Shown piece after piece: positions 1,585 through 57,170 of a DNA stretch of 64,000 nucleotides. Position 1 is the stretch's first letter. Each line of letters starts with the position of its first letter. Origin of the DNA: Deltaproteobacteria bacterium (GTDB taxonomy: Bacteria; Myxococcota_A; Polyangia; Fen-1088); the NCBI GenBank assembly GCA_033763315.1, contig JANRKS010000007.1, positions 32,001 through 96,000 of the forward strand, read 5' to 3'. The notes under the pieces were generated by a model. That model saw nothing but the letters and a program-made list of their open reading frames with translations, made no database searches and had not been told where the DNA came from. The position numbers and the translations under genes were made by a program.

Positions 1585-2952
1585 ATGACTTATTCTCGCT
1601 TTGGCTTAATCGCCTTCATCGTTGCGGCGTTGGCGGCCCAAGCTCCGACCGCGTTTGCGATCGACGAAACGATCACTGACATCAAGATTCGCGAAAACAA
1701 CCGCACAAGCGAAGACACCATTCGCGCCATGGCGGGCGCCGACATTGGCGACGACCTAGAGAGCGACACGCTCGAGTCGATACGCGAGCGGCTTAACAAC
1801 AGCGGCATGTTCGCCGACGTTGACGTGTTCTGGGAGCCCTACAAGGGCGGCGCGCGCGTGGTGATCACGGTGCGCGAGAAGTTCCCCTGGGCGCCGGTGC
1901 CCACGTTCTCGCTTTCGCCAGGCAACATTTCATTTGGTGCCGTCCTCGTTCACGGCAACCTGTGGGGCCGCGGCAAACAAGGTGTTATCGGTGGCCGCAT
2001 CTCGAACGTCAACTCGGGTGCGGTGCTGGGCTACCGCGATCCGGCGTTGCTTGGGACGTGGATGTACTGGGAGTTTCAAGGCGTCTTCAAGGACCAAACG
2101 ATTCCGGAATTCGCAACGGGTGGCATCTACTCGAATTACGCTCTTCGTGAAAACGACCTGCGCTCGTTCGGTGTCGTCACACGGTTCGGTGTGTTTTGGT
2201 GGCGTCGCGTCCGCACCGAAGTGGGTTGGGATTTCACGGATTGGAAGTACCGTGACCACCGCTACTATGACGGCGATACGAAAGCAGGCGCGCCCCCTGC
2301 CCTGGGCGTGGATCCAGGTCCAGGGGCCGAAAGCGCGACGGTGGGCGAAGGTGTGGCCGCCCTGCGCTTCGATTACCGTGCGCGTGAGCACGCCATCGTG
2401 ACCGGCAACTCCTTCGGCGTGGGTTTACGTTTGGGCTCGCCCCAGTGGGGCTCCGACAAAAAGATCGATTACTGGAAGCTGGGCGGTGAATACATGCACG
2501 GCTTGCGAATTCTGCGGCGAATCAACTGGATCAACACCGCCGGGTTCAACGTGGGCGAACGGTTGCCGCTGTGGTCCGAAAACTGGGCGGGCGGAGCCAA
2601 CCTGCGCGGTTACCAATACATGCGGTTCCGTGGCGACACCCACGCCTACTTCGAGAGTGAGTTTCACTTCCCCCTGTTCTCGATCTCGCAACTGGACGTT
2701 CGGGCGCTGGGATTTTACGACCTGCATTCAGTGTGGTGGCGCAACCAAGACTCGCTGCGAACCGATGGCCGCCGCTTCCTGGGCGAGGTCTACCAACCCA
2801 CGGGGTTCAAGCTGACACGCGACATTCACCACGGCGTGGGGGGCGGTTTGCGGTTTTACCTTCGCACGGTGGCGGTTCCTCTTGTGGGCGTCGATTATGG
2901 GTACGGTATTGAAGATGGGGTGTGGCGCTTGGTGCTGGTGGTGGGCGCGTAG
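1585..2952 (+). CDS. Omp85/BamA-TamA family outer membrane protein with a single POTRA domain
   Basis: Signal peptide; POTRA (ITDIKIRENNRTSEDTIR...RLNNSGMFADV...VITVREK); barrel with NLRGY loop motif and GVGGGLRF...VGVDYGYG. Confidence 0.85.
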   Translation: MTYSRFGLIAFIVAALAAQAPTAFAIDETITDIKIRENNRTSEDTIRAMAGADIGDDLESDTLESIRERLNNSGMFADVDVFWEPYKGGARVVITVREKFPWAPVPTFSLSPGNISFGAVLVHGNLWGRGKQGVIGGRISNVNSGAVLGYRDPALLGTWMYWEFQGVFKDQTIPEFATGGIYSNYALRENDLRSFGVVTRFGVFWWRRVRTEVGWDFTDWKYRDHRYYDGDTKAGAPPALGVDPGPGAESATVGEGVAALRFDYRAREHAIVTGNSFGVGLRLGSPQWGSDKKIDYWKLGGEYMHGLRILRRINWINTAGFNVGERLPLWSENWAGGANLRGYQYMRFRGDTHAYFESEFHFPLFSISQLDVRALGFYDLHSVWWRNQDSLRTDGRRFLGEVYQPTGFKLTRDIHHGVGGGLRFYLRTVAVPLVGVDYGYGIEDGVWRLVLVVGA

Positions 2953-2957
2953 GCCGG

Positions 2958-3833
2958 ATGCGCAAGTATGTGCGGTGGTTGCCGCTCGCCTTTCTTGCCT
3001 TCGCCCTTGCGAAGCTCAAACCCTGGAAAACTGAGTTTGCGAATGTGAACGCCTGGCCGCTGCTGCTGGGCTTGCTCATAAACTTCTGTGTGTACTTGCC
3101 ACTGCGGACGCTGCGGTGGCGCACAACCTTGTCGTCTCCCCCGCGATTTATGCGGCTTTACTGGGCGCAGATCGAGGGCATCGCCGTGGGCGGAGCCGTG
3201 GGTTTTGGCGCGCAAGACGTGGTGCGGGCCGCGCGCGTGCGCAACGACATGAGCCGCTTCTCAGACGACTTCGGCGCCACGCTGGCCGAACGCTTGGCAG
3301 AGACGCAGGCGCTGGCGTTGATGTTGGCGGGCGCCACAGCTTTGAAGCTTGTGCCCTCGTGGGGTTGGCTGCCCTCGCTGGGTGCGGGCCTGGGATTGGT
3401 CGCCATTGCAAAGCTGGGCCCGCGGCTATCACTTGTGTTTGCGCGTTGGCCAAAGATTGCCCGTGCTTTGATTGCGGTGTCGGGCGCACTAACGGTGGCC
3501 AAGGTGGCAAAGGTGGTGGCTTTTTCGTTGCTGGGATGGGCCACCGAGGTGGTGATTCTTGTGCTGAACTTCTTGGCATTTTCGTTGCCGGCGTTGTTCA
3601 GCAACGCAGTGTTGGTGGTGATCGGCATCAACGTGGCGATCACTTTCCCTGGCCCGCCCGCCAGCGTGGGCACCTTCGAGGCTGGTGTGGCCGGGACGTT
3701 GGCTTGGCGGGGCATAGCGGCAGATAAGGCGCTAGCATTTGCCCTCGCTTATCACGTGATCATGGCTTTGCCGGTCTATGCTGTGGGAGCGGGCATCGTT
3801 GTGGCGCGCGCCTACCGGCGCAAGCCTGCGTGA
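2958..3833 (+). CDS. Lysylphosphatidylglycerol synthase TM / flippase-like (UPF0104) membrane protein
   Basis: Multi-TM protein with LRTLRW, QDVVRA, LAERL and PGPPASVGTFEAG motifs typical of the family. Confidence 0.8.
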   Translation: MRKYVRWLPLAFLAFALAKLKPWKTEFANVNAWPLLLGLLINFCVYLPLRTLRWRTTLSSPPRFMRLYWAQIEGIAVGGAVGFGAQDVVRAARVRNDMSRFSDDFGATLAERLAETQALALMLAGATALKLVPSWGWLPSLGAGLGLVAIAKLGPRLSLVFARWPKIARALIAVSGALTVAKVAKVVAFSLLGWATEVVILVLNFLAFSLPALFSNAVLVVIGINVAITFPGPPASVGTFEAGVAGTLAWRGIAADKALAFALAYHVIMALPVYAVGAGIVVARAYRRKPA

Positions 3834-5002
3834 GTTTCACACGTCTTGGGAAAGTTCACAGCCAAAGCTGTTGAGGGCCAACCGAGCACGCGTTCATAAA
3901 CGCCCAAAACCTTCCCGCACACCGCGGACCAATCGAAGGCCTGCACGATTTCTCTTCCCTGACGCACGCGTTCACTCGCGCCGTCTCGCTTGGCCTCAGC
4001 AATGGCGGGCACCAACGCACGCACAAGTGATTCCGTGGAGATGTCATCCGAAAGCGTCACCGTGGCCCAGTGCTTGTCTTTGCGGCACGCCTGCACGAAC
4101 GGGGTCGCCACCACAGGCTTGCCGGCGGCGAGCGCCTCAAGCAAGATGATCGAGAAGGTCCCAGCGCGGGCGGGCAAAACGCAAAGGTCGGCGGTGGCAT
4201 ACACGTCGGGGCGCTCCTCAAAAACCGAACCCAAGAACACGACGTTGTCGCGCGCCGCCTGCGGCACCATGGCTTTATGTCGTTCTGTGCCTGAAGGCTT
4301 CTCTTCGCCGGCAACCAACAGGCGCACATCGGGATGCACTTTGAGGATCTCGGGCAGCGCATTGAACATGAGATCAGGTCCATTGCGCGGCTCTAAGCGG
4401 CCCAACATGAGAATGTTGAACTTGCCATCGCGGTAGCGTTGCATCGGCTTGCCCGAGGACATGGCGCGCACGTCAACGCCGTTGGGTATCACCTCGCTAT
4501 CGAAGGTGACGAGCTTTCCCATCGCCAACCGCGCCGCTTCTGAAACGGCGATCACAGCTTGATGCCGTGCCATCGACCAACGATAAAAACCACGAAACAG
4601 GCGGCGGACGCGCGCCATGTCGTTCATCGGCGAGTGAAGGGTCGCAATGGTGGGCAAGTTCGACAGAAGATAAAGCAGCACAGGCAAGCCCACGTCGCTT
4701 GGGCCGTGCACGTGAACGAGATCAAACCGTTCACGTGCCAAGGTCTTGTGCAAATTCCAGGCGACTCGCGGCCCAAATGTACTGGCGCTGGCGGTTCCCA
4801 GAGCGCCATAGCGGGTTCCACTGCCAACGCGCAACACCCAATCCTCATCACGCGGACCGCGCCACTGCTTAACGCGAGGCAAGCCTGTAATGACCTTTGC
4901 ATCCACGCCCACGCGACGCAACCCTTGCGCCAAGTGATACACGTGCTCTTGGATCCCACCCAGGGTTGGGTAGTAGTTCTCACACAACAGCGCGACCTTC
5001 AT
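3812..5002 (-). CDS. GT4 glycosyltransferase, PimA-like
   Basis: MKVALLCENYYPTLGGIQEHV, DLVHVH, IPNGVD, GRLEPRNG, FSIILLEALAAGKPVV. Start taken at ATG 5002. Confidence 0.88.
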   Translation of the reverse strand: MKVALLCENYYPTLGGIQEHVYHLAQGLRRVGVDAKVITGLPRVKQWRGPRDEDWVLRVGSGTRYGALGTASASTFGPRVAWNLHKTLARERFDLVHVHGPSDVGLPVLLYLLSNLPTIATLHSPMNDMARVRRLFRGFYRWSMARHQAVIAVSEAARLAMGKLVTFDSEVIPNGVDVRAMSSGKPMQRYRDGKFNILMLGRLEPRNGPDLMFNALPEILKVHPDVRLLVAGEEKPSGTERHKAMVPQAARDNVVFLGSVFEERPDVYATADLCVLPARAGTFSIILLEALAAGKPVVATPFVQACRKDKHWATVTLSDDISTESLVRALVPAIAEAKRDGASERVRQGREIVQAFDWSAVCGKVLGVYERVLGWPSTALAVNFPKTCETHAGLRR

Positions 5003-5136
5003 GGGAAACTGCCCGCCTCGTTTATCGTAGAATGCAGCGAAGAACAATGCCCCTGAAGGGCGAAGCGGTTGGTCCGCCCCGGGTGCGTAGAAAATGACCC
5101 GCTCGTCCATCCGACGTGGGCGCCCTTAATGCAAAA

Positions 5137-7041
5137 ATGCAGCGCGCCCAGTACTCTCCCGGCGTGTTGCGTGCGCCTGCAGCGAAAACCTGGCTGATTC
5201 TACCCGCGATCTTTTTGATCGCGCGGTGCCTTTCCACCGTGGCGCTCTATGCCTTCGTGACGCCCAACGGCGGGCACGTGACTGAAATCCCCTGGCGCTT
5301 TGGCCATGTGGCGTGGCTGTCTGAAACGGGCACCTTCTTGGTCCTGGCCGCCCTCGTGGGATATGCCACGCAGCGCGCAGGCAGCCGAACAAAGCACGCG
5401 CGTTGGTACCTTTGCTTTGCCTTGCTGTTCGGCTACGCGGTGGTCGCCGAAATCGACGTGCATCTGCGGCGCTGGTTGGGATTGCGGCTGAACCTGGTGT
5501 TTTTGCGCCACTTGCTTCATTCCGCGAGCCAAGGCGGCTTCTGGGAGACGCTGTCGCACTTCCTGGCGCAGGATTGGCAAGCCATCGCGCTGTCGGTGGT
5601 GCTTTTGGCGGCGCCGGCTTTTGCGGTGTGGCGCGTGGGCGCGAAAACCGCTGACCCACAATCACGCTGGACCTACCCTGCGATGGTTGTCGTGGGTGGC
5701 GTGGCCTTGGCGGCCAGCGCTCAACTGGGGATCGCGGTGCGCAAATGGCGCATGATTAGCCCTTGGCCTTACGGCATGAGCATGGACTTGGCGCGTGCCT
5801 TCGCCGAAGGGGACAAGCCGCCCACGTCGCAGCAGATCGCTCAACTTCAATCCTTGGTCGGTGACCCGCGGGCGCGAAACCCTGCATACCCCCTGTGGCA
5901 CTCTGGCGCGTCCAAGGCCGACGCACACAAAAACTTCGATGTCTTTCTTATCGCCGTGGAATCGATGCGCGGTTGGGCAAGTGACTTGCGCGCAGCGGAC
6001 GCGCGCCGCCGCCTGCCGAACCTGCACCGCTTGTTTGCCGAGGAGGGTGTGTTCTTCCCGCACGCTCACAGCAACGGCTATCCCTCAGGCGAGGGCAACG
6101 TGCACCTTCACCTCGGCGTGTGGAGCCATCCCGCGCGTGCCCTTGCGGCCGAACACGTTGGCATCGCTTCCCGCTCACTGCCCGAAATCTTGCGCGACAA
6201 AGGCTACGTCACACGCTGGTTTGCCGGCAACGATCCCAGCTTCGACAACCTGCAGCACTTCATGGGCCGCTGGTTTCACAAATGGGAAGTGATTGAAGGC
6301 GGCGATGTGGCGCTGGCCCAGCACGCCGTGAAGGTGTACGACGAACTTGGCGACAAGCAGCCACGCTTCATCTCCGTCTACACGGCGTCAACCCACCCTT
6401 TTTACGAGTTGCCCGCAAGCGAAGGCCCCAAGCCGCCCGATCCTGAACAGGCCTATTTAAAAGCATTAACGTTCGCCGATCGTTCGTTAGGGGTGATCTT
6501 CGATCATGTGCGTGCCCGAGGGCGTTTGGACAAGACGCTGTTTGTGATCACTGGTGACCACGCGCAACCAAATCATTGGCAGCTTGAACATGATGCCGAG
6601 GTGGGCCTGCCCAACGCCGGTCGCACCTGGACCAGCCTTGTGATTGCCGGCCCCGGCATTGCCGCCGGCCAGGTGCGCGAAGACGCTTCGTCACACGTTG
6701 ACGTGCCGCCAACGGTGCTGGGATACCTGGGCATCGGCGCCGACAACCATTTCTTCGGCCGCGACTTGCTGGCCGACACAAAGCCCCGCCCGATCGTTGC
6801 CACCTTTGGTGGAGGCGCCTCAGTCATTCTGGGTGACACAATGCTGATCGGCGATCTCTCGGGGCCCGAGCGCTCGAAATACCGTTACGACCAACAAAAC
6901 AACGAAAACCCAGCCGCGTACCAACACGGTGAAAAGATCCCATTGGCCCCCGGTGATGCGCAGCGATTCGAAAGCGTGGTTGGCGCGTTAAAGGCGTTTG
7001 CATGGCTGGCGGATCACGATCGGTTGCGGCCAGCGGAGTAG
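5137..7041 (+). CDS. LTA synthase (LtaS/MdoB) family membrane sulfatase-like protein
   Basis: About five N-terminal TM segments, then VFLIAVES, YTASTHPFY, ADRSLG, TLFVITGDH, SHVDVPPTVL, FFGRDLL. Start uncertain (5116 or 5137). Confidence 0.82.
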   Translation: MQRAQYSPGVLRAPAAKTWLILPAIFLIARCLSTVALYAFVTPNGGHVTEIPWRFGHVAWLSETGTFLVLAALVGYATQRAGSRTKHARWYLCFALLFGYAVVAEIDVHLRRWLGLRLNLVFLRHLLHSASQGGFWETLSHFLAQDWQAIALSVVLLAAPAFAVWRVGAKTADPQSRWTYPAMVVVGGVALAASAQLGIAVRKWRMISPWPYGMSMDLARAFAEGDKPPTSQQIAQLQSLVGDPRARNPAYPLWHSGASKADAHKNFDVFLIAVESMRGWASDLRAADARRRLPNLHRLFAEEGVFFPHAHSNGYPSGEGNVHLHLGVWSHPARALAAEHVGIASRSLPEILRDKGYVTRWFAGNDPSFDNLQHFMGRWFHKWEVIEGGDVALAQHAVKVYDELGDKQPRFISVYTASTHPFYELPASEGPKPPDPEQAYLKALTFADRSLGVIFDHVRARGRLDKTLFVITGDHAQPNHWQLEHDAEVGLPNAGRTWTSLVIAGPGIAAGQVREDASSHVDVPPTVLGYLGIGADNHFFGRDLLADTKPRPIVATFGGGASVILGDTMLIGDLSGPERSKYRYDQQNNENPAAYQHGEKIPLAPGDAQRFESVVGALKAFAWLADHDRLRPAE

Positions 7042-7057: not shown

Positions 7058-8749
7058 CTATTGCAAGTCTTTCACGAAAATGGCGTTGCCGCTCACGATG
7101 GCGATGCGCTTGCCATCGGGACTTGGCGCCACCTCACCAGGAACACGGGCGCTCGCGACAACGCGACGTTCACCTGTGAGCGGTGACACCATAAGAAGTT
7201 CGCTGTGGCAATAGGTCTCGAAAAGGCCTTTGCACTTGCTGACCCACACAAAGGCTCTGGGGTTTACAGGATCGTCTACGGTGCGAATGAATTGAGGGAG
7301 CAGGCGGCCTTCGTTGGTGGCAATCACGTTACCGACGAGAGGTTGATCCTCGGGCGAAATCAACGAAAGGCCCAAGTCGATGTTTGACATGAAGATCTTG
7401 AGGCCCGCAGCCGTGATGACCGGAAAGGCGGGAAACTGAACATGGGTAGGAAAGGCTCCCAGAACTTCTTCAGTTCCTCTACTTGTAAGTTTTCTAAACT
7501 CCCAGTTCGTTCTGCCATTGATGGTGCCGTTGCCCTCTAGGCCGCTGAACTGCACTTTGGTTAATACGCCGGTGTTATCGCTCGTCCATCGCAACAAACC
7601 TGGCTGCCCTTGCGCCAGCTTCTGGCCTGTTTCTAAGGAAAAGATCTGCGTGCCCTTGCCCCCGAAAACCTCGCGCGCAACCATCGAGCCATCAGGGGAT
7701 ACAAGCCCGCCGGGTGCAGGCAAGGAACGCAAGACGGGGCCGTGATCGGAAGTGAACAAGACTTCGGCCAGAACATCATCGGCAGCCAGGTCGTGTGCAG
7801 TCACTGCCGCTGTCACAAAAACCTTTTGACCTGAAGGATCCCAGCTCAGCGGTGGCTTGAAGGAGCCGGAGGACAACGTCAGAGGCGCTGATCCATCCGT
7901 GGCCACACGTCGGATTGAAGAGGGAAGCGCGGGCGTTGGCCGAAGCGTGAGCGACCAAATCTTGGGTTGAGAATCTGGAAAGTAGACCAACGCCGAGCTA
8001 TCAGGATTCCAGGCGAGGTTCAATCCGCCTTCATCGGCAATCTTCATGCCCAAATCATCGGGCTGCTGCGGGTATTGGCAGCCGCGAAGAAACTCAAGCT
8101 CCGTTCCGGAAGGGTCGAGCGGATCTCGCTCGGCGACGTCGTTGTTGATTTTAAAGAGTTCAATCACTGTCTCGTTGGGAACAGGAACGAGCTTGATCGC
8201 TCTTTCACCGCATGTCCTCTGCCATAAGCTGAGACCGCTAGGAACCAACACGTCCTCCCCGTCGACCCCAAATGGTTTCTGCAACGTTGAAGACTGCGCG
8301 GCGCCAACTAGGAAGGGGCTCCCAAATGAAGTGACGCGTCCATTCTCCTGTGGAGGACCGTCGAAGCTTGGCCGCAAGAACCCGTAGACATCGATGCGTT
8401 GGAAGACGGACCCTTCGATGATTTGAAACGGCGGATTCTCAACGCTTGCCCGCGCAACCTGGATCACGGGCAGGTCGCAAACTTGGTTCGCGCAAGGAGA
8501 ATAGAATGACCTCAGACCGCCATAATCCGCGGATGTCTTATCGTAGCCAGGAAAGCCTGGGCGCCCCCTGGTTGTAGCCGCTACGACACTACCGCTGAAG
8601 TCCATCGGCCCTTGTTCCGACGCTTCAGAAGGAATCCGTAAAGCGAATGTGCCCACGACCTCGCTGCCGAGGTGAAGCCCAAGCGCCCCGTCTCCACACG
8701 ACGACATTAGAACGTTGAGAAGACAGACGCAGACGTGTCTCTTTGTCAT
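7058..8749 (-). CDS. Putative lipoprotein with TolB/PD40-like beta-propeller
   Basis: Lipobox-like LMSS-C; repeats LAWNPDSSAL, LSWDPSGQKV, VSPDGSMV, LRWTSDNTGV, PSPDGKRIA. Starts 8 nt after the caspase stop. Confidence 0.65.
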   Translation of the reverse strand: MTKRHVCVCLLNVLMSSCGDGALGLHLGSEVVGTFALRIPSEASEQGPMDFSGSVVAATTRGRPGFPGYDKTSADYGGLRSFYSPCANQVCDLPVIQVARASVENPPFQIIEGSVFQRIDVYGFLRPSFDGPPQENGRVTSFGSPFLVGAAQSSTLQKPFGVDGEDVLVPSGLSLWQRTCGERAIKLVPVPNETVIELFKINNDVAERDPLDPSGTELEFLRGCQYPQQPDDLGMKIADEGGLNLAWNPDSSALVYFPDSQPKIWSLTLRPTPALPSSIRRVATDGSAPLTLSSGSFKPPLSWDPSGQKVFVTAAVTAHDLAADDVLAEVLFTSDHGPVLRSLPAPGGLVSPDGSMVAREVFGGKGTQIFSLETGQKLAQGQPGLLRWTSDNTGVLTKVQFSGLEGNGTINGRTNWEFRKLTSRGTEEVLGAFPTHVQFPAFPVITAAGLKIFMSNIDLGLSLISPEDQPLVGNVIATNEGRLLPQFIRTVDDPVNPRAFVWVSKCKGLFETYCHSELLMVSPLTGERRVVASARVPGEVAPSPDGKRIAIVSGNAIFVKDLQ

Positions 8750-8757
8750 ACAGGCCC

Positions 8758-10389
8758 TCAAAAAAAGATGCCCACAGAAACTGTTCCTCGCCAAGACGTC
8801 TGTACCTTTAACGCCGGGGAGATAGACGCGGTGTCGTAAGCCTTAAGCAGGTGGAACGGTCTGGCGCCCTCAAACCTTAGGTAAGCACGAAATCGAAAAG
8901 GGACATCAAGCTGTAAAATGGGGCTCAACTCACCTCCAAGTGAACTCTTTAAGCCCTCTGATGGCGACCTAAAGTAGACAAACGAAGGATGAATTTGCGC
9001 ATTTGTGTACTCAATCAGAGCAATACTTCTTTGTTCGAGTCTGAAAACCCCAGCCTCAATACCGGCGGACAATGTTACGTACTCAAAGTCTTTGGGGTAA
9101 AGCAGCAAGGCGGAAAGATCCCACTGCTCTTGTTCTCGGATGTACGATTCCTTGTGACCCGAAGTCTTGCTTCCAGCGATCCGAGCCTCAAGCGCGAAAC
9201 GACGCCGGTCTTGGCGGTAGGATAAGGTTGTCACCCACGCTGAAATTCCTATCATTGGATCTGTCCGATAGCCCCCGCCGAGCGACGCGCTATGCACGGT
9301 CCGCGGTGCATCTCCCTTTCTCACCATGCGCGCGTAAGTGAGGTGTTTCATCTCGTCGCTGGCCACGATCTCCGTAAGCCCCGCCCGAACCTTGTAGTCG
9401 CCAGCGAGCATGTGGTTGCTTCCTCTCTTCGTCACTTCGTAGCGGCCAGACTCAAGCGCAACCATCGCACCACCTGCGTGCGATGCAATCTCGGCCACAG
9501 GCAAGTTCAAGCCCGCGTCGCCATCGAGCCGGGTCACCGTGTAGCCGCCAGCATCGATGAACTGCAAAGCACCGATGGTTCCGTCTAAGCGGCGAGGGCG
9601 CGTCAACGCCAAGTCCTCGCGGCCGCCCCAGTTCATTCGGAACGTGGGATGTTGAGGGCCAGCCTCCGTGCGCAATGTGGCCGACATGGTCTCGCGGGAC
9701 GAGAAGTCGAACGCCTCCGAGACCGTGACAACCCCATCGCCGTTGGCGTCGCCAGCGCCGCGCATCGCAGACACGAAGAAGTGCGAGAAGAACGATGCTT
9801 TAAGAGACTCGGCTTCTTGTGAATCTTCGTGTGCAGCGCTTGAGGTTAAGATTGCAAAGCCTTTCGGCAACGGTTGAGCCTGCAAAGCCACCTCGAAAGC
9901 CGGCGTCGGGCGGCCTCCCTTCACGCGCGTGGCGGTGCCGGACCGGCAGGAATCAATAACAAGCACCCTGGTTGCCGCTGATGATCCCTCAACGAGCAGG
10001 CGCATTTCTTCCACATGAAGTTGTGTGCCCGCCATTTTGAGATGGTTGCCGTCGGCGTGTCCCGAGTAGTACACAAACAACACAGCCTCATCGGCGCGCT
10101 CGCGAATACGTGCGTTCAACCTGTGCAGAGTGTCTCGCACATCTGCAGCGCGCACGCCGTTCAAAAGCAACACTTGATCAGGCGGAAAGTCGCCCACGTC
10201 TCGCAAGGTCTGCGCCACATTTTGAGCGTCACGTTCAGCGTACCGCAGACGCGGCTCCGTTCCGTCACCGATATTTGCACCGACAACCACCGCAAAGCGC
10301 GCCGCATGGCGATCTTCAGCGCCGCTCGCCAGCGAGGCGTGGCAAGCCAGCGACGCCACCACCACAACGCCTAAAGGGTTGCCAAGCAT
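8758..10389 (-). CDS. Exported caspase-family (peptidase C14) protein with probable C-terminal outer-membrane beta-barrel
   Basis: Hydrophobic N-terminus; RFAVVVGAN...LRYAERDA; catalytic dyad YYSGHAD and IDSCRSG; GAGDANGDGVVT; C-terminus GTVSVGIFF resembles a beta-signal. ATG overlaps upstream TGA (TGATG). Confidence 0.88.
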   Translation of the reverse strand: MLGNPLGVVVVASLACHASLASGAEDRHAARFAVVVGANIGDGTEPRLRYAERDAQNVAQTLRDVGDFPPDQVLLLNGVRAADVRDTLHRLNARIRERADEAVLFVYYSGHADGNHLKMAGTQLHVEEMRLLVEGSSAATRVLVIDSCRSGTATRVKGGRPTPAFEVALQAQPLPKGFAILTSSAAHEDSQEAESLKASFFSHFFVSAMRGAGDANGDGVVTVSEAFDFSSRETMSATLRTEAGPQHPTFRMNWGGREDLALTRPRRLDGTIGALQFIDAGGYTVTRLDGDAGLNLPVAEIASHAGGAMVALESGRYEVTKRGSNHMLAGDYKVRAGLTEIVASDEMKHLTYARMVRKGDAPRTVHSASLGGGYRTDPMIGISAWVTTLSYRQDRRRFALEARIAGSKTSGHKESYIREQEQWDLSALLLYPKDFEYVTLSAGIEAGVFRLEQRSIALIEYTNAQIHPSFVYFRSPSEGLKSSLGGELSPILQLDVPFRFRAYLRFEGARPFHLLKAYDTASISPALKVQTSWRGTVSVGIFF

Positions 10390-11120
10390 CACAAGCCAAC
10401 TCGTTTGTTGAAGTTCACACGAGTCGTGCGGCAACCAAACGGCGCGACGTCGAGGTTGCGGCGCAAGGCAACTGTCAGCGTTTCGATCTCTTGTCTTTCT
10501 TCGCAGAGAAACAGAAGGAGGCTTTCAGCACCTGCGGCATTGTCTAAAACGACCGCATCAGGCAGCAGAATCTTGTCCGACGTTGTTAGTGCGTACAACC
10601 AGCCCTTCGGAGGAGCCAACGCGGACACGGTGCCTGTACCGTCGATGCCGATTACCCCCACGAATCCCGGCGCCGGAGAAGACACTTCAAAACGCAAGCG
10701 ATCCCCCGCTGCAAGTTCATCGCCCTCCAGTAAACGCTCAACCGGTTTGGTACCGCCCTTAACAAGCACGTCGAGGTGCAGACCAGAAGCCTTGCGACGA
10801 ACGTTTTGTACCGACGAGAACGGCAATGCATCACGCACCGGCGTCGGGGTCGGGACAAATAGCAACCCCACCACCGCCGCGACCGCAAGCAACGACAACG
10901 CTGTGGCCCTGCGCGCGCCTGCCGGCCGCAGAGGCTTCACCACCTCCCAAGCTGGAGCGGGAACGCGTGCCTGCCTAACGAAGGCCGCACAGCCTTCGCA
11001 TCCCTGCAGATGCTTCGCCACGAATATGGCACGCGAGTCATCGGTGAGTTCTCCTTGCGTGTATCGATCCAAAAGGTATTCCGAAGGGCACGAGCGCCTT
11101 GTTGAGCTGTCAGCGGTCAT
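10389..11120 (-). CDS. Zinc-binding membrane anti-sigma factor with DUF4384-like periplasmic domain (ActD-like)
   Basis: HLQGCEGC (HxxxCxxC), one TM (ALSLLAVAAVVGLLFVP), then GDELAAGDRLRFEV...LPDAVVLDNAAGAE. TGATG coupling to the sigma gene. Confidence 0.8.
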   Translation of the reverse strand: MTADSSTRRSCPSEYLLDRYTQGELTDDSRAIFVAKHLQGCEGCAAFVRQARVPAPAWEVVKPLRPAGARRATALSLLAVAAVVGLLFVPTPTPVRDALPFSSVQNVRRKASGLHLDVLVKGGTKPVERLLEGDELAAGDRLRFEVSSPAPGFVGVIGIDGTGTVSALAPPKGWLYALTTSDKILLPDAVVLDNAAGAESLLLFLCEERQEIETLTVALRRNLDVAPFGCRTTRVNFNKRVGL

Positions 11121-11620
11121 CAGTTCTTCCCTCGGCTTTGGCAGGCGTGGCTGGGCTCGTCAGCCCACAAACAAGCAAGAACGATCTTGAGATCAGCGAT
11201 GCGGCTGCACACGGTTCTTTGTGACACCCCGAGCAACTCTGCGATTTCTTCCTGCGTCATCTCGTCGACGTAGTAGTGCAAGGCCAACGTTTGCAAGTCG
11301 GGAGGCACACCGCGGAGCAGTACACCCAACGGCGGTCCACTTGGCTGCACCGGCGATTGCAACGTCTGCAGCAACATTGAATGCTTGCCCGCGTCCCTTA
11401 GAAGATTAAGGCAATGGTTCGTTGTGACGCGGTAGAACCACCCCACGTTCACTTCATAGAGGCTGTCGGCCCGCCCCATCAACGCCAGGAACACCTCGTG
11501 GCAAACGTCCCTCGCGAGGGCGTCGTTGCGCAATAGTTTACGGGCCCTTCGATACACGAGGTTGCCGTATCTATCGTAAAGCGCGGCCAGCTTGAGCCGT
11601 CGGTCGTCCTCTAACGCCAT
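11120..11620 (-). CDS. ECF RNA polymerase sigma factor
   Basis: Region 2 LYDRYGNLVYRRARKLLRNDALARDVCHEVF...WFYRVTTNHCLNLLR; region 4 YYVDEMTQEEIAELLGVSQRTV. Start at ATG 11620. Confidence 0.9.
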   Translation of the reverse strand: MALEDDRRLKLAALYDRYGNLVYRRARKLLRNDALARDVCHEVFLALMGRADSLYEVNVGWFYRVTTNHCLNLLRDAGKHSMLLQTLQSPVQPSGPPLGVLLRGVPPDLQTLALHYYVDEMTQEEIAELLGVSQRTVCSRIADLKIVLACLWADEPSHACQSRGKN

Positions 11621-11760
11621 TTTCAGAGGAGTAAAACACCTAGGACGAACATTTTTAGAAGCCGAAAGACGTTTTTCTTTTCTGAGCCTGCAAACAGCAG
11701 GAGGCCCGCCAAGCAAGCCTGGGCCAGGCGACGGCCATCGGTCATAATGCCCGGCTGCAC

Positions 11761-13290
11761 GTGAGCCAGTCCCCCTCCCCCACTTCCGCAACGGCCTCCA
11801 AGCATGGCGCCAGCGACGCGCGCTACGCCTTTCGCGGCGGGCTTGTGCAGTTGCTCGGAATCTTGGGGCAAGCCTTCATGACTCTGCAGGGAGTCATCGT
11901 GCCGCGTCTATTTGGGCCCACGGCCTATGGACTTTACAGCGGTCTGCGCGATCTGGTTGAGATTCTGGCGCGGGCGGCCTGCCTCGGCACCGACAAGGGC
12001 CTTTACCGGTTCGTGGCAGGCCACTGCGCTGCCGGCGAGCCGGAGCGAGCCGCAGATGCGACCGCGGTTGCATTGCGCATCACAGCCGTCACGGGTGTGG
12101 TGCTAGCGGGCGTGGCAGCTGTGGCGGCGCCTTTCATTGCAAAAGTGTTTCATCGTCCCGAGGTCGCGGGGCTGTTGCCATTCATCGCGCCCGCGATCTT
12201 TGGCCTTTCTATGACATTCACGGCTGTGGCTGCGTCGCTTGGCTACAAGCGTCCCAAGGCACAATTGCACGTGCGCGGCATCGCAGAGCCCTTGCTTTTG
12301 GTGGGCGCAACCGCCGTGGCAGGCGTTGTGCTTCCCAGGATCACAACTTTGGCCGTGATTCATGGGGCTGTCTATTTCGTCATTGCGTGGTTCGCCGTGA
12401 GCCGCCTGCCACGAGATGTGTACGCGAGTCTGTGGTCTCGCCTTCGCCACGCTCGCTATCCGGGCTTGCTCGCCTTTTCACTACCTGTGGCGGCACTTGA
12501 GTTGACCAACATCGTCCGGCACCGCGTGGACGGCATGGTTGTGTTTGCGATGTTTCCACCCAAGACGGCCGCGCTATACTTCGCTAGTGAAACGATTGGC
12601 CGCATCGCTGCCAATATCCGCTACGCGTTTGACGGGATTGTGGCGCCGATGTTCTCAGAAGCCATTCACACCCACGATCGGCTCCGTCTGCAGAACTCCT
12701 ACCGCGTTCTCACGCGCATGGTTGCCACGTTGTCGTTTCCGCTTGCCATGTCGCTGATCAGTTTGCGGGAGCGGCTGGTGTTGCTTTCCGGCGATGCGTT
12801 TGCCTCGGCGGCCATGCTTGTGCCGTTTCATGTCAGCGGACATCTGGCGAATGGCGTGCTTGGCCTCGCGGGCCACGTTCTCATGATGGCGGGGCGAACT
12901 CGCTGGCTTTTGATCAATCAATTGATCGCTGCCGGCGTCAACATACTCGCTTGCGTGCTCCTCATCCCTCGCTTCGGCCTGCTGGGCGCCGCTTATGCTT
13001 TTCTTCTGGGTTGGGCGGTGTCGCTCGGCACCACGCTGGTTGAGGTCGCCATCGTTGAACGCGTTCAGCCGTTTGGCGCAGGGCTATTTAAGCCGGGCGC
13101 TGCCGCCGTGCTCATGTATCTGGCGCAGCGGCAGGCCCAGCACATAGACAATGTGTTCATCAATGTCGGTGTAACTTTACTTGGCGGTCTCGCTGTTTAT
13201 GCGACGTCCTTGGTTGCCCTCGGCCTTGACCCCACCGAGAAGGCTGCCGTGGCAAAACAATGGCAACGGCTCCGGCGGAGGTCCGAATGA
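11761..13290 (+). CDS. Polysaccharide flippase (Wzx/MATE-like)
   Basis: About 12-14 TM segments; RLFGPTAYGLY, APMFSE, LIPRFGLLGAA. Confidence 0.85.
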   Translation: MSQSPSPTSATASKHGASDARYAFRGGLVQLLGILGQAFMTLQGVIVPRLFGPTAYGLYSGLRDLVEILARAACLGTDKGLYRFVAGHCAAGEPERAADATAVALRITAVTGVVLAGVAAVAAPFIAKVFHRPEVAGLLPFIAPAIFGLSMTFTAVAASLGYKRPKAQLHVRGIAEPLLLVGATAVAGVVLPRITTLAVIHGAVYFVIAWFAVSRLPRDVYASLWSRLRHARYPGLLAFSLPVAALELTNIVRHRVDGMVVFAMFPPKTAALYFASETIGRIAANIRYAFDGIVAPMFSEAIHTHDRLRLQNSYRVLTRMVATLSFPLAMSLISLRERLVLLSGDAFASAAMLVPFHVSGHLANGVLGLAGHVLMMAGRTRWLLINQLIAAGVNILACVLLIPRFGLLGAAYAFLLGWAVSLGTTLVEVAIVERVQPFGAGLFKPGAAAVLMYLAQRQAQHIDNVFINVGVTLLGGLAVYATSLVALGLDPTEKAAVAKQWQRLRRRSE

Positions 13291-14363
13291 CGACGGCGTT
13301 AACGCGAACCACCCCACCTCGCGTGTTGTTTTTCCTGCAAGGGCAAAACGTGCCGTCGAGCCGGTTTCGCGTCGCCCAATTCATCCCGCATTTCGAGAGC
13401 CACGGCATTGCCTGCACAGTTCGTGCTCCCTATCCAAGTTTGCAAGGAGACGTCAAAGCGCGGTTCTTCCATGGCTGGCGGCGTCAGTTCACGCGGCCGT
13501 TAAGTGTGGGCGTGCGGCTTAGCCAAATGAAAGGCATAAGGAATCACGATCTCGTGTACTTGCAGCGACCTCTGCTGAGTTACTACACAACGGCGCTCGA
13601 AGAAGTTGTGTGCCGCCTTCGACCGGCGATCTTCGATATAGACGATGCGATCTTTCACAACTTCTTTGGCTGGGAGCGCTTCAAGATCAAACGCATCGTG
13701 AAGCTTTGCCGGCATCTGGTGGCGGGCAATCAATACTTGGCCGATTTTTTCGAGGCGCCCCACAAGACAACCATCATACCCACTGTGGTTGATGCAGAGC
13801 GATTCGTCGTTCGACCTGAACCGCCGGAGGACCAACCCTTCACGATTGTGTGGACAGGGCTGTCATCAAATCTAAAGGAACTGGCGCCGGTGCTGCCTGG
13901 AATCAAGGCCGCGCTCGACGAGACCCGCGGGCGGCTTGTGGTCGTCGCCGATCGGCTCGACGAAGATGTTGTGCGCGGCTTGCCCGTTGACTTTGTCAAA
14001 TGGTCTCCCGAAACCGAGGTGCAAGCCTTGGGTCGTGCGCACGTGGGCATCATGCCCCTGCGGGATACACCCTATAACCGAGGCAAGTGCGGCTTTAAGC
14101 TGATCCAGTACATGGCGCGAGGCATGTGCGTGGTGGCTGCGCCGGTGGGCGCCAACGTAGAGATCGTGCGCGCTCACAAAGATGGTCTGCTTGCCAACAG
14201 CTCCGATGATTGGGCCGACGCGCTCGTCAGCTTGGCTCGCGATCGGGATATGCGCCATCGCATGGGCCAATCGGGCCGAGAACGCGTTGAACAACGTTAC
14301 AGCATCAAAGCCGTGCTTCCGCAGTTTCTCGATTTGTTCGCACGCTTCGGTGCAGGCGCGTAA
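13287..14363 (+). CDS. GT4 glycosyltransferase
   Basis: PSSRFRVAQF, FDIDDAIF, GIMPLRDTPYNRGKCGFKLIQYMARG. ATGA overlap with the flippase. Confidence 0.88.
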   Translation: MTTALTRTTPPRVLFFLQGQNVPSSRFRVAQFIPHFESHGIACTVRAPYPSLQGDVKARFFHGWRRQFTRPLSVGVRLSQMKGIRNHDLVYLQRPLLSYYTTALEEVVCRLRPAIFDIDDAIFHNFFGWERFKIKRIVKLCRHLVAGNQYLADFFEAPHKTTIIPTVVDAERFVVRPEPPEDQPFTIVWTGLSSNLKELAPVLPGIKAALDETRGRLVVVADRLDEDVVRGLPVDFVKWSPETEVQALGRAHVGIMPLRDTPYNRGKCGFKLIQYMARGMCVVAAPVGANVEIVRAHKDGLLANSSDDWADALVSLARDRDMRHRMGQSGRERVEQRYSIKAVLPQFLDLFARFGAGA

Positions 14364-15870
14364 CAATGCGCTCACTCACGCGCAGAGCGTTGGCTGCAAT
14401 CGTGAGGCTGGGATTCACGCCGGCCGCCGTGGGCATCACGCTGCCGTCCGTGACGAAGACATTCGGTACACCGTGAAGGGCGCAATCGACGTCCAACACA
14501 GACTTCTTGGGATCAACGCCCATGCGTGCGGTGCCCACCGCATGTGAGAAGCTATCCACAAGGTTGACCTTGCCCACCAAGCCTCCGGCCTTCCGCAAGA
14601 TCTTGCGCGCGGCTTTGATCAGTTGGTGCCGCCGCCTCAGATCGTTTTCAGAATAGCTATGCTCGATGCTTGTGACCGGCAGGCCTAAGTCATCCAAACG
14701 TTCTGACAAGAAAACGCGGTTGTTGACCTGTGGATCGTCTTCCGCGATGCATATCAGCGTTTGAATGTGATTCGCCACCGTGTGTGCAGCGACGCGAAAG
14801 CCCTTCGGCGCTAAAACGCGCACAACCTCGGGCGGCGGCATCATCATATCCTGGATGACCCCCACGGCGCGCCCTGTGGCCGCGCGTTCGAATTCATACA
14901 AGTCGCTGATGCAGACTTGTTTGTGGTTGAGCTTTTGCGGATTGGTCGCGAAGGGAAACACATACCCCACCATCGCGTTGCAATGCCGCATGAGGTTGCG
15001 CCCCAGAAGGTTCGAGCGGTCGGTGGACTGCAAGCCGGAGCGCAAGAGTACGGCCGGTGTTTGCACGGCGCCAGCAGCCACCACGACAGCATCTGCCGTG
15101 ACTGTGTATTGTTTACCGGTGTGTTTGTCGTGAACCAACACGCCGCGTGCAAGGTGTCCCTCGGTGAGAATGCGCAACACCGTAGCGCCGGCGACGATTG
15201 TTAAGAAATTGTGATCCGCGTTCGCAAGAAACGTCATCGCGACGTCGTTTTTCGCGCTCACTTTGCACGGGAAGCCATCGCACGTTGAGCACCGCATGCA
15301 AGCCGTGCCGCGGCTGCCTTGAAAGTCAATCGCTGTCGGCACCGAGAACGGGTGAAAGCCAGCAGCTTTCGCCGCTTTGAAGATACGTTCGGCGGGCGGC
15401 GTCAGTGGCTGCGCTGGCAGTGGGTAAGGGGCGGACCGCGGCGGCTCGGTGGGATCCTCGCCGGCGTTGCCGTGCACCCCCAACAACCGCTCCGCCCGGG
15501 CGTAAAACGGTTCGAGATCCGCATAACGCAAAGGCCACTCGGCGAAATCAGTTTCGCGTAAGCGTAGGGCAGCGCCACCGAAGAAGACTGAATTGCCACC
15601 CACAACAGCGTTGAGCACAACGTCTTTCGCCGCGCGGTCATATTGCGCAATGCTGACAGGAGAGTCCGCCCTGTATCGCCCCTCCAGCAAGATCTTGCTG
15701 CCACTCCAATCGTCGTCGTCGCGCAACGGCCAGGGGCCGCGCTCAAGCAGCAGCGTCTTAACACCGGCTCGCGATAAGTCGTAAGCTGCGGCACCGCCGC
15801 CGAAGCCCGAACCCACGATGACAACATCGTAGTGTTCATCCAAAGGTTTGCTGCGCCCCTCCTGCCCCAT
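14305..15870 (-). CDS. GMC family FAD-dependent oxidoreductase
   Basis: YDVVIVGSGFGG, VGGNSVFFGG, CMRCSTCDGFPC, HAVGTARMG, DGSVMPTAAGVNPSLTIAANALR. Start uncertain (15870 or 15894); 59-bp convergent overlap with the GT4 gene. Confidence 0.9.
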   Translation of the reverse strand: MGQEGRSKPLDEHYDVVIVGSGFGGGAAAYDLSRAGVKTLLLERGPWPLRDDDDWSGSKILLEGRYRADSPVSIAQYDRAAKDVVLNAVVGGNSVFFGGAALRLRETDFAEWPLRYADLEPFYARAERLLGVHGNAGEDPTEPPRSAPYPLPAQPLTPPAERIFKAAKAAGFHPFSVPTAIDFQGSRGTACMRCSTCDGFPCKVSAKNDVAMTFLANADHNFLTIVAGATVLRILTEGHLARGVLVHDKHTGKQYTVTADAVVVAAGAVQTPAVLLRSGLQSTDRSNLLGRNLMRHCNAMVGYVFPFATNPQKLNHKQVCISDLYEFERAATGRAVGVIQDMMMPPPEVVRVLAPKGFRVAAHTVANHIQTLICIAEDDPQVNNRVFLSERLDDLGLPVTSIEHSYSENDLRRRHQLIKAARKILRKAGGLVGKVNLVDSFSHAVGTARMGVDPKKSVLDVDCALHGVPNVFVTDGSVMPTAAGVNPSLTIAANALRVSERIVTRLHRSVRTNRETAEARL

Positions 15871-15880
15871 GTGCCTTCGA

Positions 15881-17044
15881 TTATAGAAGATCATGCTCTT
15901 CGCGCCGCCCGTGGCGCCGCAAAAGCTCGTCGTAGATGGCAACAGTTTGGTCAACGACGTGTAGCGGCGTCGGCGCAAAACGCGCGCGCATATGCTGGGC
16001 CGCGGCAGCGCCTCGGGAAATCAGGTCTACGCGAGGCATCGTAAAAACATCCGCCAACGCCTCCACAAGAGGCGCCTGTTTGAACGTTGGAACTTCCCAT
16101 CCACTGGTTCCGGGTTCGACTATCCCGTCCACGTTAGCCGCATGCGACAGAACGGCCGGTAAACCGCAGGCGCAGCCCTCAAGAGCCGCATTCGCCAGTC
16201 CCTCATACAAAGACGGCATCACCAGAACATCTGAAGCCCAATAAAGTGATCGCATGTCCTTTTGCGCGCCCAACAATCGCACGTGCGGCTTCAGCTCGGG
16301 CGACTGAGCCAACGACGCAACCCACCGCGATGCGATGGGATCGCGATTTCGTCCGGCGAGGAGGAGCACAATGTTGCTTGGAAGACGCCGCTGCTTTGCC
16401 AAGGACCGCAAAGCGCGCAGGAGCCCAATCTGATGCTTTTGCACCCCAACCCTTCCCGGCAGCAGCAGCACCAGATCGCCATCGCTCACGTTCCACCGAA
16501 CGCGCGCTTCGGCTTTCTCGCCCGGTGTGGGTGGCCGAAAGAAGTTCACGTCGAGAATGTTGTGTATGACGCGAATCTTTGCGGCTGGCACCCGGGCATA
16601 GCGAGTGAGCTCATACTTCACGCCTTCAGAATTCGTTAAAATGACCTGGGTGCCGCGTGACATCCACTTCTCGATAAGGAGGTACCGAAGCTGCATCATG
16701 CGGTTGCGGCAAGATGTGATCAGAACGCGCACGCCCGCACGCCGGGCCGCAAGCCGCATCCAGAAGTTCGCTTTGTCGCGGTAGGAGTGAACGATGTCAG
16801 GCTGTTCCGCCTTCAAGATCTCCGTCAGTTTCCGCAACGCCGAGATCCCCATGCGCTTGACGCCCAAACTGTGCCGCGGTTGCCCCGGCAGCAGACGATC
16901 GTCGAAGAAGATCCCCTCGTCGTTGTAGACGCACAGAATGGGCTCGAACCGTTCGGGCAGATTCCTGATCATTTCGAGGATCTGTCGCTCGGGTCCCCCT
17001 TGCTGTAGGTTGGGGATGAAATAGAGGATTTTGGTACGACGCAT
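15881..17044 (-). CDS. GT4 glycosyltransferase
   Basis: KILYFIPNLQQGGPERQ, PDIVHS, DVLVMPSLYEGLANAALEGCACGLPAV. Confidence 0.88.
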   Translation of the reverse strand: MRRTKILYFIPNLQQGGPERQILEMIRNLPERFEPILCVYNDEGIFFDDRLLPGQPRHSLGVKRMGISALRKLTEILKAEQPDIVHSYRDKANFWMRLAARRAGVRVLITSCRNRMMQLRYLLIEKWMSRGTQVILTNSEGVKYELTRYARVPAAKIRVIHNILDVNFFRPPTPGEKAEARVRWNVSDGDLVLLLPGRVGVQKHQIGLLRALRSLAKQRRLPSNIVLLLAGRNRDPIASRWVASLAQSPELKPHVRLLGAQKDMRSLYWASDVLVMPSLYEGLANAALEGCACGLPAVLSHAANVDGIVEPGTSGWEVPTFKQAPLVEALADVFTMPRVDLISRGAAAAQHMRARFAPTPLHVVDQTVAIYDELLRRHGRREEHDLL

Positions 17045-23579: not shown

Positions 23580-23590
23580 AAGATTCGTCC

Positions 23591-25510: not shown

Positions 25511-25833
25511 TAGAGTTCTCCCTCGCTCAGACGAGACGCGCGCTCACGACTGATGTCGCGGTAGTTGCGGAAAAACACAATCGTCATGCCCAAACCGATG
25601 GCGGCTTCGGCCGCGGCCACACCAATCGAGAGCATGTAGAGGTAATGGCCAAATTCGTGGGTGCCCCATAAGAAGTGGTTGAACGCGATGAGTGTGAAGT
25701 TGACGCCGTTGAGCATCACTTCCACCGAAAGCAGAATCATCACCAAGCTGCGGCGTGTGAGCAGGCCATAACAGCCCGTCAGGAACACGATGACGGCCAG
25801 CGTGAGGCAATTGGCGAGGTTGAAGTCGAGCAT
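25510..25833 (-). CDS. nuoK: NADH-quinone oxidoreductase subunit K
   Basis: LLSVEVMLNGVN, VAAAEAAIGL. Confidence 0.95.
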   Translation of the reverse strand: MLDFNLANCLTLAVIVFLTGCYGLLTRRSLVMILLSVEVMLNGVNFTLIAFNHFLWGTHEFGHYLYMLSIGVAAAEAAIGLGMTIVFFRNYRDISRERASRLSEGEL

Positions 25834-26409: not shown

Positions 26410-26508
26410 GACGGTGCCGTTCTTCTTGCCCGATCAAAGGCAAGGCGTGGCGGGTTTGGTTCGGCAACATGGGATTCTTGGGGGTGAAGGCGGAAGAGAA
26501 GTGGAAGC

Positions 26509-27030: not shown

Positions 27031-27045
27031 CTAGACCTCCTCGAA

Positions 27046-28098: not shown

Positions 28099-28104
28099 CG
28101 TGAC

Positions 28105-29583: not shown

Positions 29584-29595
29584 GGTCGTCCTGGG

Positions 29596-30993: not shown

Positions 30994-31012
30994 AGACTTT
31001 TCTTTGAAGCGT

Positions 31013-32832: not shown

Positions 32833-32883
32833 CTGGGAGGCGTCCGTCCTCTTGCCTTATGTGAAAGAAATGGTCCGCCGCCC

Positions 32884-33426: not shown

Positions 33427-33428
33427 AC

Positions 33429-55359: not shown

Positions 55360-57170
<1,811 letters not shown>

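Follow-up and report, generated by a model that had tools for sequence, protein, structure and literature searches.

An envelope protein can reach a sigma factor of the extracytoplasmic function (ECF) type through cell-surface signalling, as in FecA-FecR-FecI, or through regulated intramembrane proteolysis of the RseA/DegS type, with its two-step proteolysis. Here, we analyse a four-gene operon in a 64-kb stretch of DNA from Deltaproteobacteria bacterium (assembly GCA_033763315.1, contig JANRKS010000007.1, positions 32,001 to 96,000; hereafter the window), which encodes an ECF sigma factor, a zinc anti-sigma factor, a caspase and a lipoprotein. Sigma-metacaspase operons were listed in 2012 for Myxococcus xanthus DK1622, Anaeromyxobacter, Haliangium, Sorangium, Fibrobacter and Ralstonia, and four of the five metacaspases of M. 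xanthus share an operon with a sigma factor gene (PMC3501461). The M. xanthus operons share with ours the order ECF, hypothetical protein, caspase, with a transmembrane (TM) segment called in two of the four and a lipoprotein after the caspase in two of the four. As far as its accessible text goes, that source is a neighbourhood note without an anti-sigma call, a barrel, a cleavage motif or a mechanism, and our comparison with it is one of gene order. Two further reports bear on the anti-sigma factor: RseP degrades the myxobacterial zinc-binding anti-sigma (ZAS) factor DdvA once its periplasmic domain is gone (PMC11506125), and in some Csx30 anti-sigmas, members of a family that a caspase-like protease cuts, the C-terminal domain is DUF4384 (10.1101/2022.08.17.504292).

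On balance, we consider it probable that the operon gives Myxococcota a trans-envelope signalling unit that is autoregulated and in which the caspase acts as the site-1 protease, the anti-sigma factor is cut and the sigma factor is freed. This reading is based on predicted compartments, on catalytic and S1 residues that are intact, on the joint inheritance of the genes and on motifs and a promoter that are shared, all taken from sequences and models. A cue from the envelope or the surface, possibly received via the variable barrel loops, the lipoprotein or calcium, would activate the caspase, which would cut its own K157-G loop and its K358-G tether. The released caspase-Ig fragment, probably off the barrel, would reach the anti-sigma factor and cut it after K110. 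Loss of DUF4384 would then let RseP cut the Ala-rich helix, and the freed sigma factor would transcribe the operon and neighbouring envelope lipoprotein genes. The more specific idea of a self-releasing receptor-protease is tentative, and we regard it as plausible without leaning towards it: the barrel would sense at the outer membrane, and the caspase would be cut free at its Lys-Gly tether, cross the periplasm and cut the anti-sigma factor at a like motif, with the partner lipoprotein as a regulator or feedback inhibitor. If true, a diffusible protease would act as the relay between the two membranes, and a bacterial caspase would have a signalling task that does not kill the cell.

Protein architectures and gene order

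Open reading frames (ORFs), junctions and motifs were read from the window, where the operon spans 11620-7058 with all four ORFs on the minus strand (Table 1). A preliminary description of this DNA had reported four co-oriented genes, TGATG coupling at both the sigma/anti-sigma and the anti-sigma/caspase junctions, and an 8-nt gap before the lipoprotein gene. All are present in the sequence, with TGATG at 11122-11118 and 10391-10387, and the stop codon of the caspase gene is separated from the lipoprotein ATG by 8 nt (8750-8757). The SGH/DSC dyad (H111, C148), the hydrophobic N-terminus and the GIFF end that it attributed to the caspase were also found, and its observation of the operon is confirmed. 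DUF4384, the Ig-like domain, the Lys-Gly motifs and the promoter motif are added here.

The protein search with the caspase gave 929 proteins at E <= 0.001 among 7999 scored, and the best 112 near-full-length ones (of 120 listed) were aligned. A genome scan with the caspase, whose pattern itself required SGH, gave 473 relatives with titles nearly all from Myxococcota or delta-proteobacteria, and the best 80 loci were analysed. Sigma and anti-sigma genes were both present in 72 of these 80 loci, and in 69 the sigma, anti-sigma and caspase genes were adjacent and co-oriented. Overlaps were mostly 1-4 nt, being 4 nt at the anti-sigma/caspase junction in 53/69 and at the sigma/anti-sigma junction in 49/69. 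The conserved gene order that a neighbourhood survey had been expected to reveal is therefore there, and the similar triads that the preliminary description mentioned for myxobacteria agree both with these 69 loci and with the 2012 table of the order ECF, hypothetical protein, caspase (PMC3501461). The triad arrangement is more than chance. Among the eight loci without both partners, six end within 600 nt of a contig end, one is a sigma-caspase join (L016) and one has full flanks (L068). The sigma/anti-sigma pair is divergent from the caspase in L001 and L011, and in L066 the sigma and anti-sigma genes are separated by a large lipoprotein gene. One 4.4 kb contig titled Fredinandcohnia (Bacillota) (L012, DATGOH010000058.1) has the triad, groups with Myxococcota on a quick IQ-TREE tree of 81 caspases, and is likely misbinned.

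With only sigma2 and sigma4 and its short length, P0001 is by sequence an ECF sigma factor, scoring 68.9 with TIGR02937 (cut-off 42.9) and above the Pfam cut-off with Sigma70_r2 and r4_2. Word-indexed homolog searches with the anti-sigma factor and with the lipoprotein returned only the window's own proteins, and relatives of both were drawn from the loci and the full HMMER library, giving 72 aligned anti-sigma members. An N-terminal HxxxCxxC and one TM segment in 72/72, together with the gene position at +1 of the sigma gene, place the family among class I ZAS factors as judged from sequence. TM hydropathy on the Kyte-Doolittle scale is at least 1.78 in 72/72 and a loose AAA-type pattern is found in 58/72; the Ala-rich helix may be where RseP acts, and the anti-sigma factor is predicted to cross the inner membrane with DUF4384 on the periplasmic side. 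Pfam matches of the window's proteins to zf-HC2, DUF4384 and PD40 are below cut-off. Across the anti-sigma family, at E <= 0.01, zf-HC2 is matched in 41/72 and DUF4384 in 39/72, and the family profile matches the structures of ChrR (E 4e-5), RsiW and DdvA. The DUF4384-like domain has a conserved Cys pair (C206/C230) and further conserved residues of its own (D160, L192-D193, G197, E199, K239).

The caspase matches Peptidase_C14 (PF00656) at E 3e-15, and in its AlphaFold2 (AF2) model (pLDDT 88.9, pTM 0.82) the signal helix is followed by the caspase domain at about residues 29-263, a beta-sandwich at 270-351, a short helix at 352-358 and eight long strands at 365-542. The term Ig-like is our reading of the all-beta secondary structure in this whole-protein model. 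The best structural match of the caspase domain in VIA-align is AtMC4 (Z 20.3, rmsd 2.8, 207 aligned), and D54, S109 and D146 align with the S1 motifs of yeast and plant metacaspases. The S1 residues of TbMCA2 are Asp95, Ser156 and Asp211 (PMC4357240), and in AtMC4 Asp137 and Ser84 hold the self-cleaved Lys225 (10.1101/2020.03.09.983940). The caspase fold, the His-Cys dyad and the acidic S1 pocket, which in metacaspases accommodates Arg or Lys, point to a C14B metacaspase/orthocaspase, which we predict to be Lys-specific. It is not a member of the EACC1-associated caspases (NF047832), with 65.5 bits against a curated cut-off of 140. An EF-hand-like loop (D214-E225, window 9715-9750, minus strand), both residues of which are found in 112/112 caspases, suggests calcium binding in the periplasm.

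A hydrophobic h-region was found in 76 of 78 intact N-termini of the genome loci (three truncated starts left out). The last residue is F/W/Y in 53 of 74 complete caspase ORFs, and F/W/Y/L in 65 of 74. In VIA-align, the modelled barrel matched Legionella porin III (Z 18.6), NspA (Z 18.3, rmsd 2.6, 150/155 aligned), OmpW (16.4) and OmpA (16.3), and soluble barrels reached Z <= 12.4. These results bear out the exported and barrel-anchored caspase of the preliminary description, and the structure prediction of the C-terminus that it had proposed gave an 8-stranded outer-membrane barrel. The signal peptide, the strands, the pattern of turns and loops and the terminal aromatic residue agree with the 8-stranded OmpA/OmpW type, as far as the model can be followed. 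In the model, the turns are short at the end of the barrel that carries the two termini, and the loops at the opposite end are long; in OmpA-type topology the side of the barrel termini is the periplasm, and the caspase domain is therefore predicted to sit in the periplasm, tethered by the barrel to the outer membrane. Autotransporters (type Va) export a passenger through a 12-stranded barrel, and this identity was ruled out by the model, in which 8 strands are seen and 150 of the 155 NspA residues can be aligned.

Table 1. Positions of the operon's genes, domains and candidate sites in the window
Feature	Position	Strand	Basis
Candidate autoregulated ECF promoter, 9 nt before sigma ATG	11630..11663	-	Position fits homologous sites, weak sequence match
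ECF sigma factor, 166 aa (P0001), sigma2 + sigma4 only	11120..11620	-	Pfam Sigma70_r2 E 4e-11, r4_2 E 1e-7
Class I zinc anti-sigma factor, 243 aa (P0002): cytoplasmic ZAS, one TM, periplasmic linker, DUF4384-like domain	10389..11120	-	Family profile, alignment
Zinc motif H37-x3-C41-x2-C44	10989..11012	-	Invariant in 72/72 aligned anti-sigmas
Ala-rich TM helix, residues 73-89 (predicted RseP site)	10854..10904	-	Kyte-Doolittle 2.58
Anti-sigma R108-x-K110/A111 (family R-x-K/G), predicted caspase cleavage site	10788..10799	-	Alignment of 72
Exported caspase-Ig-barrel protein, 543 aa (P0003)	8758..10389	-	Pfam, alignment, AF2, VIA-align
Predicted Sec signal peptide, ~residues 1-24	10318..10389	-	h-region hydropathy 2.93
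C14 metacaspase-type domain: dyad H111/C148; S1 residues D54, S109, D146; EF-hand-like loop	9601..10305	-	Invariant in 112/112
Caspase T154-R-V-K157/G158 loop, predicted self-processing or self-inhibitory site	9916..9930	-	Alignment
Ig-like beta-sandwich spacer, residues 270-351	9337..9582	-	All-beta in AF2 model
Caspase V356-R-K358/G359, helix end just before barrel, predicted release site	9313..9324	-	Alignment
8-stranded OmpA/OmpW-type outer-membrane beta-barrel, terminal beta-signal VGIFF	8761..9306	-	VIA-align
Lipoprotein (Cys18), 563 aa (P0004): N-terminal family domain + C-terminal beta-propeller	7058..8749	-	Profiles, model
Lipidated Cys18 (predicted) + family N-terminal domain, residues 18-200	8150..8698	-	HHalign
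Beta-propeller, residues 232-563	7061..8056	-	VIA-align Z 20.5 to WD40 propellers

Lys-Gly motifs in the caspase and the anti-sigma factor

A Lys-Gly motif is near-invariant at three places, namely the loop after the catalytic Cys of the caspase, its pre-barrel linker, and the periplasmic linker of the anti-sigma factor. In the anti-sigma family K is found in 72/72, G in 71/72 and R in 66/72, and the linker between the TM segment and DUF4384 is variable apart from R-x-K-G. Without alignment, RxKG within 40 aa after the TM segment was found in 65/72 anti-sigmas versus 32/5978 control segments (0.5%). The linker before K110 has 8 to 32 residues, and K110 lies at a median of 13.5 residues from the inner-membrane helix. 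The K157 loop follows the catalytic Cys by nine residues, and its K and G are present in 81/81 and 112/112 sequences, yet residues 151-158 are modelled at pLDDT < 50. The pre-barrel motif is conserved among the 112 proteins (R 112/112, K 111/112, G 112/112) and in the genome loci (R 76/76, K 74/76, G 72/76). A precedent is AtMC4, in which a linker Lys obstructs the active site until activation brings self-cleavage at this residue (10.1101/2020.03.09.983940). We infer that the Lys-Gly motifs are cleavage sites, and the motif common to both proteins together with the acidic S1 pocket gives independent support to the idea that the caspase cuts the anti-sigma factor. A complex prediction of caspase 26-543 with anti-sigma 92-243 scored 0.00 in two runs and was counted neither for nor against.

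Several points weigh against this reading. Among the 72 anti-sigmas, the window's own is the single member in which Ala follows the conserved Lys. The distance between K110 and the DUF4384 core is almost fixed (median 28 residues to G139), as would also be expected of a residue with a structural function at the edge of the domain. Before the barrel, the motif reads V-R-K-G rather than R-x-K-G and is modelled at a helix end, and the Lys-Gly motifs in general could be binding or structural elements. Cleavage at the Lys-Gly bonds, the activating signal and the order of events are all putative. The conservation is that among close relatives, because the best 80 of the 473 genome matches and the best 112 of the 929 protein matches were covered. 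L068 has the caspase and the lipoprotein with no sigma or anti-sigma detected, and the window's best promoter site scores 4.0 bits with a position weight matrix (PWM) from 55 other regions, which 24% of shuffles equal or exceed. As a separate observation, the window's anti-sigma factor has a second Lys-Gly (V120-K-G-G, 10752-10763, minus strand) ten residues past K110, which possibly reflects chance or a shifted site.

If the motifs bind rather than being cut, the system might work by contact signalling like FecA-FecR, where the tethered caspase would control the anti-sigma factor by binding. It would engage the K110 loop, in the manner of a pseudo-substrate or a docking motif, or else DUF4384, and the site-1 cut would fall to a different protease, Prc for example. 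The active site of AtMC4 can hold an uncleaved Lys (10.1101/2020.03.09.983940), the conserved residues of DUF4384 would suit such a contact, and ECF21 couples anti-sigmas with outer-membrane barrels (PMC7826278 supplement). However, the catalytic dyad is invariant in 112/112 proteins from a search that did not require it. Judged against the width of the periplasm, a tethered caspase with one spacer domain is unlikely to span it, because K110 lies near the inner membrane. We therefore consider contact signalling unlikely.

Alternatively, the caspase might be an output of the sigma factor, i.e., a co-transcribed envelope-processing protease, with a general protease cutting the anti-sigma factor and the Lys-Gly motifs being structural or for caspase maturation only. 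The entire operon lies behind the putative sigma promoter, and the caspase and lipoprotein without a nearby sigma gene in L068, as well as the divergent pairs of L001 and L011, fit an output role. Such a role leaves unexplained why R-x-K-G is common to the anti-sigmas and the caspase loop amid a freely varying linker, and the lipoproteins, the obvious alternative substrates, lack the motif (RxKG in 0/53 and 1/60). This alternative seems a shade less likely again, and site-1 cleavage by the caspase is the reading that we retain.

Promoter motif, lipoproteins and neighbouring genes

A family motif, TGCC(C)-N~18-GGTC, was found upstream of the leading gene in these operons. Its seed pattern was present in 9 of 56 de-duplicated upstream regions versus 0.74 in shuffles, and in leave-one-out scoring with the PWM 36 of 55 regions were significant versus 2.75 expected. 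Over the window, the family PWM gave no site above 10.6 bits, and a sigma-70 promoter scan gave nothing above chance. A second candidate near 11670-11700, spotted by eye, was dropped as it was not the PWM's best. Scanning the whole loci gave 49 sites of at least 11 bits in 2.3 million positions. Those outside the training regions include ten at about -4 kb, where a PF09826 gene starts, sites in L034 and L046 facing a divergent lipoprotein gene, and sites in L003 and L010 before other lipoprotein genes. This distribution is consistent with autoregulation and a regulon of envelope lipoproteins. The ECF25 promoter, GGAAC/GTC, differs from the family motif at -35, and the anti-sigma factors here have a zinc domain and/or DUF4384, as do those of ECF25 (PMC7826278 supplement).

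Clustering of 1004 called genes gave one further conserved family, a lipoprotein of 200-390 aa in 65 of the 80 loci, whose gene lies upstream of the core in 43 and downstream in 22. The family had no Pfam match, its Atlas clusters are unnamed and mostly from Myxococcota, and the Atlas gave a weak YscW/YbaY-like lead (TM 0.35/0.50). On the caspase tree the label for lipoprotein position is clustered with several changes, and the link to the lipoprotein thus survives rearrangement. Lys is absent among the common residues at position +2, and in M. xanthus Lys+2 is the mark of inner-membrane lipoproteins (PMC3222651); an outer-membrane location is therefore likelier, although unproven.

The window's fourth protein, P0004, was modelled as an N-terminal beta domain of modest confidence followed by the propeller. 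It has one direct relative in the 80 loci (L016) and 87 matches in a 50%-identity library, of which 60 full-length ones were aligned, 31 of them with Pfam PD40. As a single sequence it did not match the partner lipoprotein family (E 0.14; probability 0.1%), and an Atlas feature search with residues 1-205 gave leads at 0.84 only. Its relatives matched the family down to E 1e-12 (reversed controls E >= 0.78), HHalign of the mature domains of the two families gave 93% (local) and 95% (global) with controls at 0.2-0.5%, and the second motif of the domain scores alone at E 4.5e-5. From these profile matches, P0004 is a propeller-extended relative of the conserved partner lipoprotein. The preliminary description had the propeller lipoprotein take part in sensing, which finds no support, as it is the N-terminal domain and not the propeller that is conserved. 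Sensor, inhibitor and plain output were considered, and since the lipoprotein gene stands behind the sigma factor's putative promoter even when divergent (L034, L046), it appears to be at least a regulon output.

Some relatives show other arrangements. In-frame joins of the same sigma family to mid-caspase (L016 9704-10993) and to mid propeller lipoprotein (P0163) were rejected as real fusion architectures, being probable deletions or assembly joins; they show that other records, too, have the propeller variant next to this operon. A PF09826 beta-propeller lipoprotein gene adjoins the partner lipoprotein gene in 12 loci of another clade (L039, L050, L051, L053, L055, L058, L063, L067, L072, L074, L076 and L079), about 2-4 kb upstream of the caspase and mostly behind a strong promoter motif. 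L003, L004 and L021 have an Ig-domain lipoprotein and an Oar-like TonB-dependent barrel downstream, and a metallophosphoesterase lipoprotein divergently upstream. In L068 (7863-12471), an unexplained ORF of 669 aa and a match to the promoter motif precede the caspase and lipoprotein genes.

The operon is flanked by a convergent sulfatase gene on one side and a divergent polysaccharide flippase and glycosyltransferase cluster on the other, and it breaks a run of envelope genes at window 1585-7041 and 11761-18077 (Omp85, LPG synthase, GT4 glycosyltransferases, sulfatase, flippase, GMC oxidoreductase), a setting that the other loci do not share. A functional link with the flanking polysaccharide genes was dropped because no such neighbour recurs in the 80 loci. 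GC3 is 0.62 in three of the four operon genes versus 0.67-0.75 in five flanking genes, and each of the three core genes occurs only once in the 64-kb window. Elsewhere in the window, the translations indicate an NADH dehydrogenase I (nuo) operon (20695-34879, minus strand). At 50932-57170 (minus strand) lie genes for an OmpA/TSP3 protein (604 aa) and then an Ig-repeat/TSP3 protein (1475 aa), a pair that we take to resemble the myxobacterial TraA/TraB type.

The neighbours also bear on whether the operon could serve, like PCaspase or DdvA, in anti-phage defence or cell death, with an attack-triggered caspase that degrades many proteins or switches on a defence island. Related myxobacterial sigma-caspase systems are defensive (10.1101/2023.06.23.546230, PMC11506125), and the caspase has a weak PADLOC match (E 0.003). 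Among the nearest non-core neighbours (115 of ~700), PADLOC gave 11 scattered matches at E <= 1e-5 that do not add up to any recurring system, although members of the regulon encoded further away may yet have a defence function. No CRISPR or CBASS-like family is recurrent among the clustered neighbours of the 80 loci, the genes behind extra promoter copies encode envelope lipoproteins, and the protease is predicted to be periplasmic. Taken together, a defence role appears improbable.

Comparison with described systems

The nearest parallel is M. xanthus DdvS/DdvA, which likewise has a myxobacterial ECF sigma factor, a zinc-binding TM anti-sigma factor, a proposed periplasmic site-1 protease of the caspase clan and RseP for site 2 (PMC11506125, PMC6061681). 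In DdvA, however, TPR-CHAT lies within the anti-sigma factor, whereas our operon encodes the protease separately, as a C14 protein carried by a barrel, and the anti-sigma factor has DUF4384. The 72 anti-sigmas (~230-290 aa) lack the TPR-CHAT fusion, with no CHAT among their Pfam matches. DdvS/DdvA controls a CBASS-CRISPR island, and no defence system recurred among the neighbours scanned here, although the regulon may lie further away. In the type III-E Craspase (Csx29/Csx30/RpoE), a caspase-like protease also cuts a sigma-binding protein in its linker, and DUF4384 occurs in one Csx30 group, but that protease is a cytoplasmic RNA-guided CHAT protein, and the accessible part of the report describes no TM anti-sigma factor, barrel or lipoprotein (10.1101/2022.08.17.504292). 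Haliangium PCaspase/PCc-sigma/PCi is similar in that a myxobacterial C14 caspase, activated by cleavage, is encoded with a sigma factor. It differs in its SAVED-CHAT and cA3 activation, broad specificity and abortive infection, with no export described in the text available to us (10.1101/2023.06.23.546230). In our 80 loci there is no conserved SAVED-CHAT or kinase neighbour, and the caspase has a signal peptide and a barrel. AtMC4 shares the acidic S1 pocket and a linker Lys after the catalytic Cys for self-inhibition and self-cleavage, but is eukaryotic and cytosolic, with a large linker domain and no membrane anchor (10.1101/2020.03.09.983940).

The operon and its predicted products also combine features of the classical envelope routes. 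As in FecA-FecR-FecI, an outer-membrane protein, an inner-membrane anti-sigma factor and an ECF sigma factor are encoded in one operon, and two-step proteolysis would be shared with RseA/DegS. Unlike FecA-FecR-FecI, the barrel is small, 8-stranded and fused to a protease instead of being a TonB-dependent transducer, and none of the 72 anti-sigmas has a FecR match, which sets the operon apart from TonB-dependent cell-surface signalling.

The literature searched, with most subscription papers outside its scope, gave no barrel-anchored caspase, Lys-Gly motifs or mechanism for these operons, and an earlier mention is possible; the accessible part of the ECF re-classification supplement contains neither 'caspase' nor 'C14'. 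Our results touch on the job of most bacterial caspases and on the first-cut proteases of most ECF anti-sigmas. They give this caspase a predicted location (periplasmic, outer-membrane-anchored), a predicted substrate, three candidate scissile bonds and a promoter for a reporter. The mechanism is open to point mutants, since four operons with the same order of genes exist in M. xanthus, a model organism, with their caspases next to MXAN_4950, 6682, 7215 and 7455 (PMC3501461). If true, an outer-membrane receptor-protease route would be added to trans-envelope signalling. The sigma-caspase gene link is already known from 2012 (PMC3501461), and caspase-clan proteases are tied to sigma factors in DdvA, Csx30 and PCaspase; what is new here is the predicted regulated proteolysis of an ECF anti-sigma factor with an unusual outer-membrane caspase, together with exact testable predictions.

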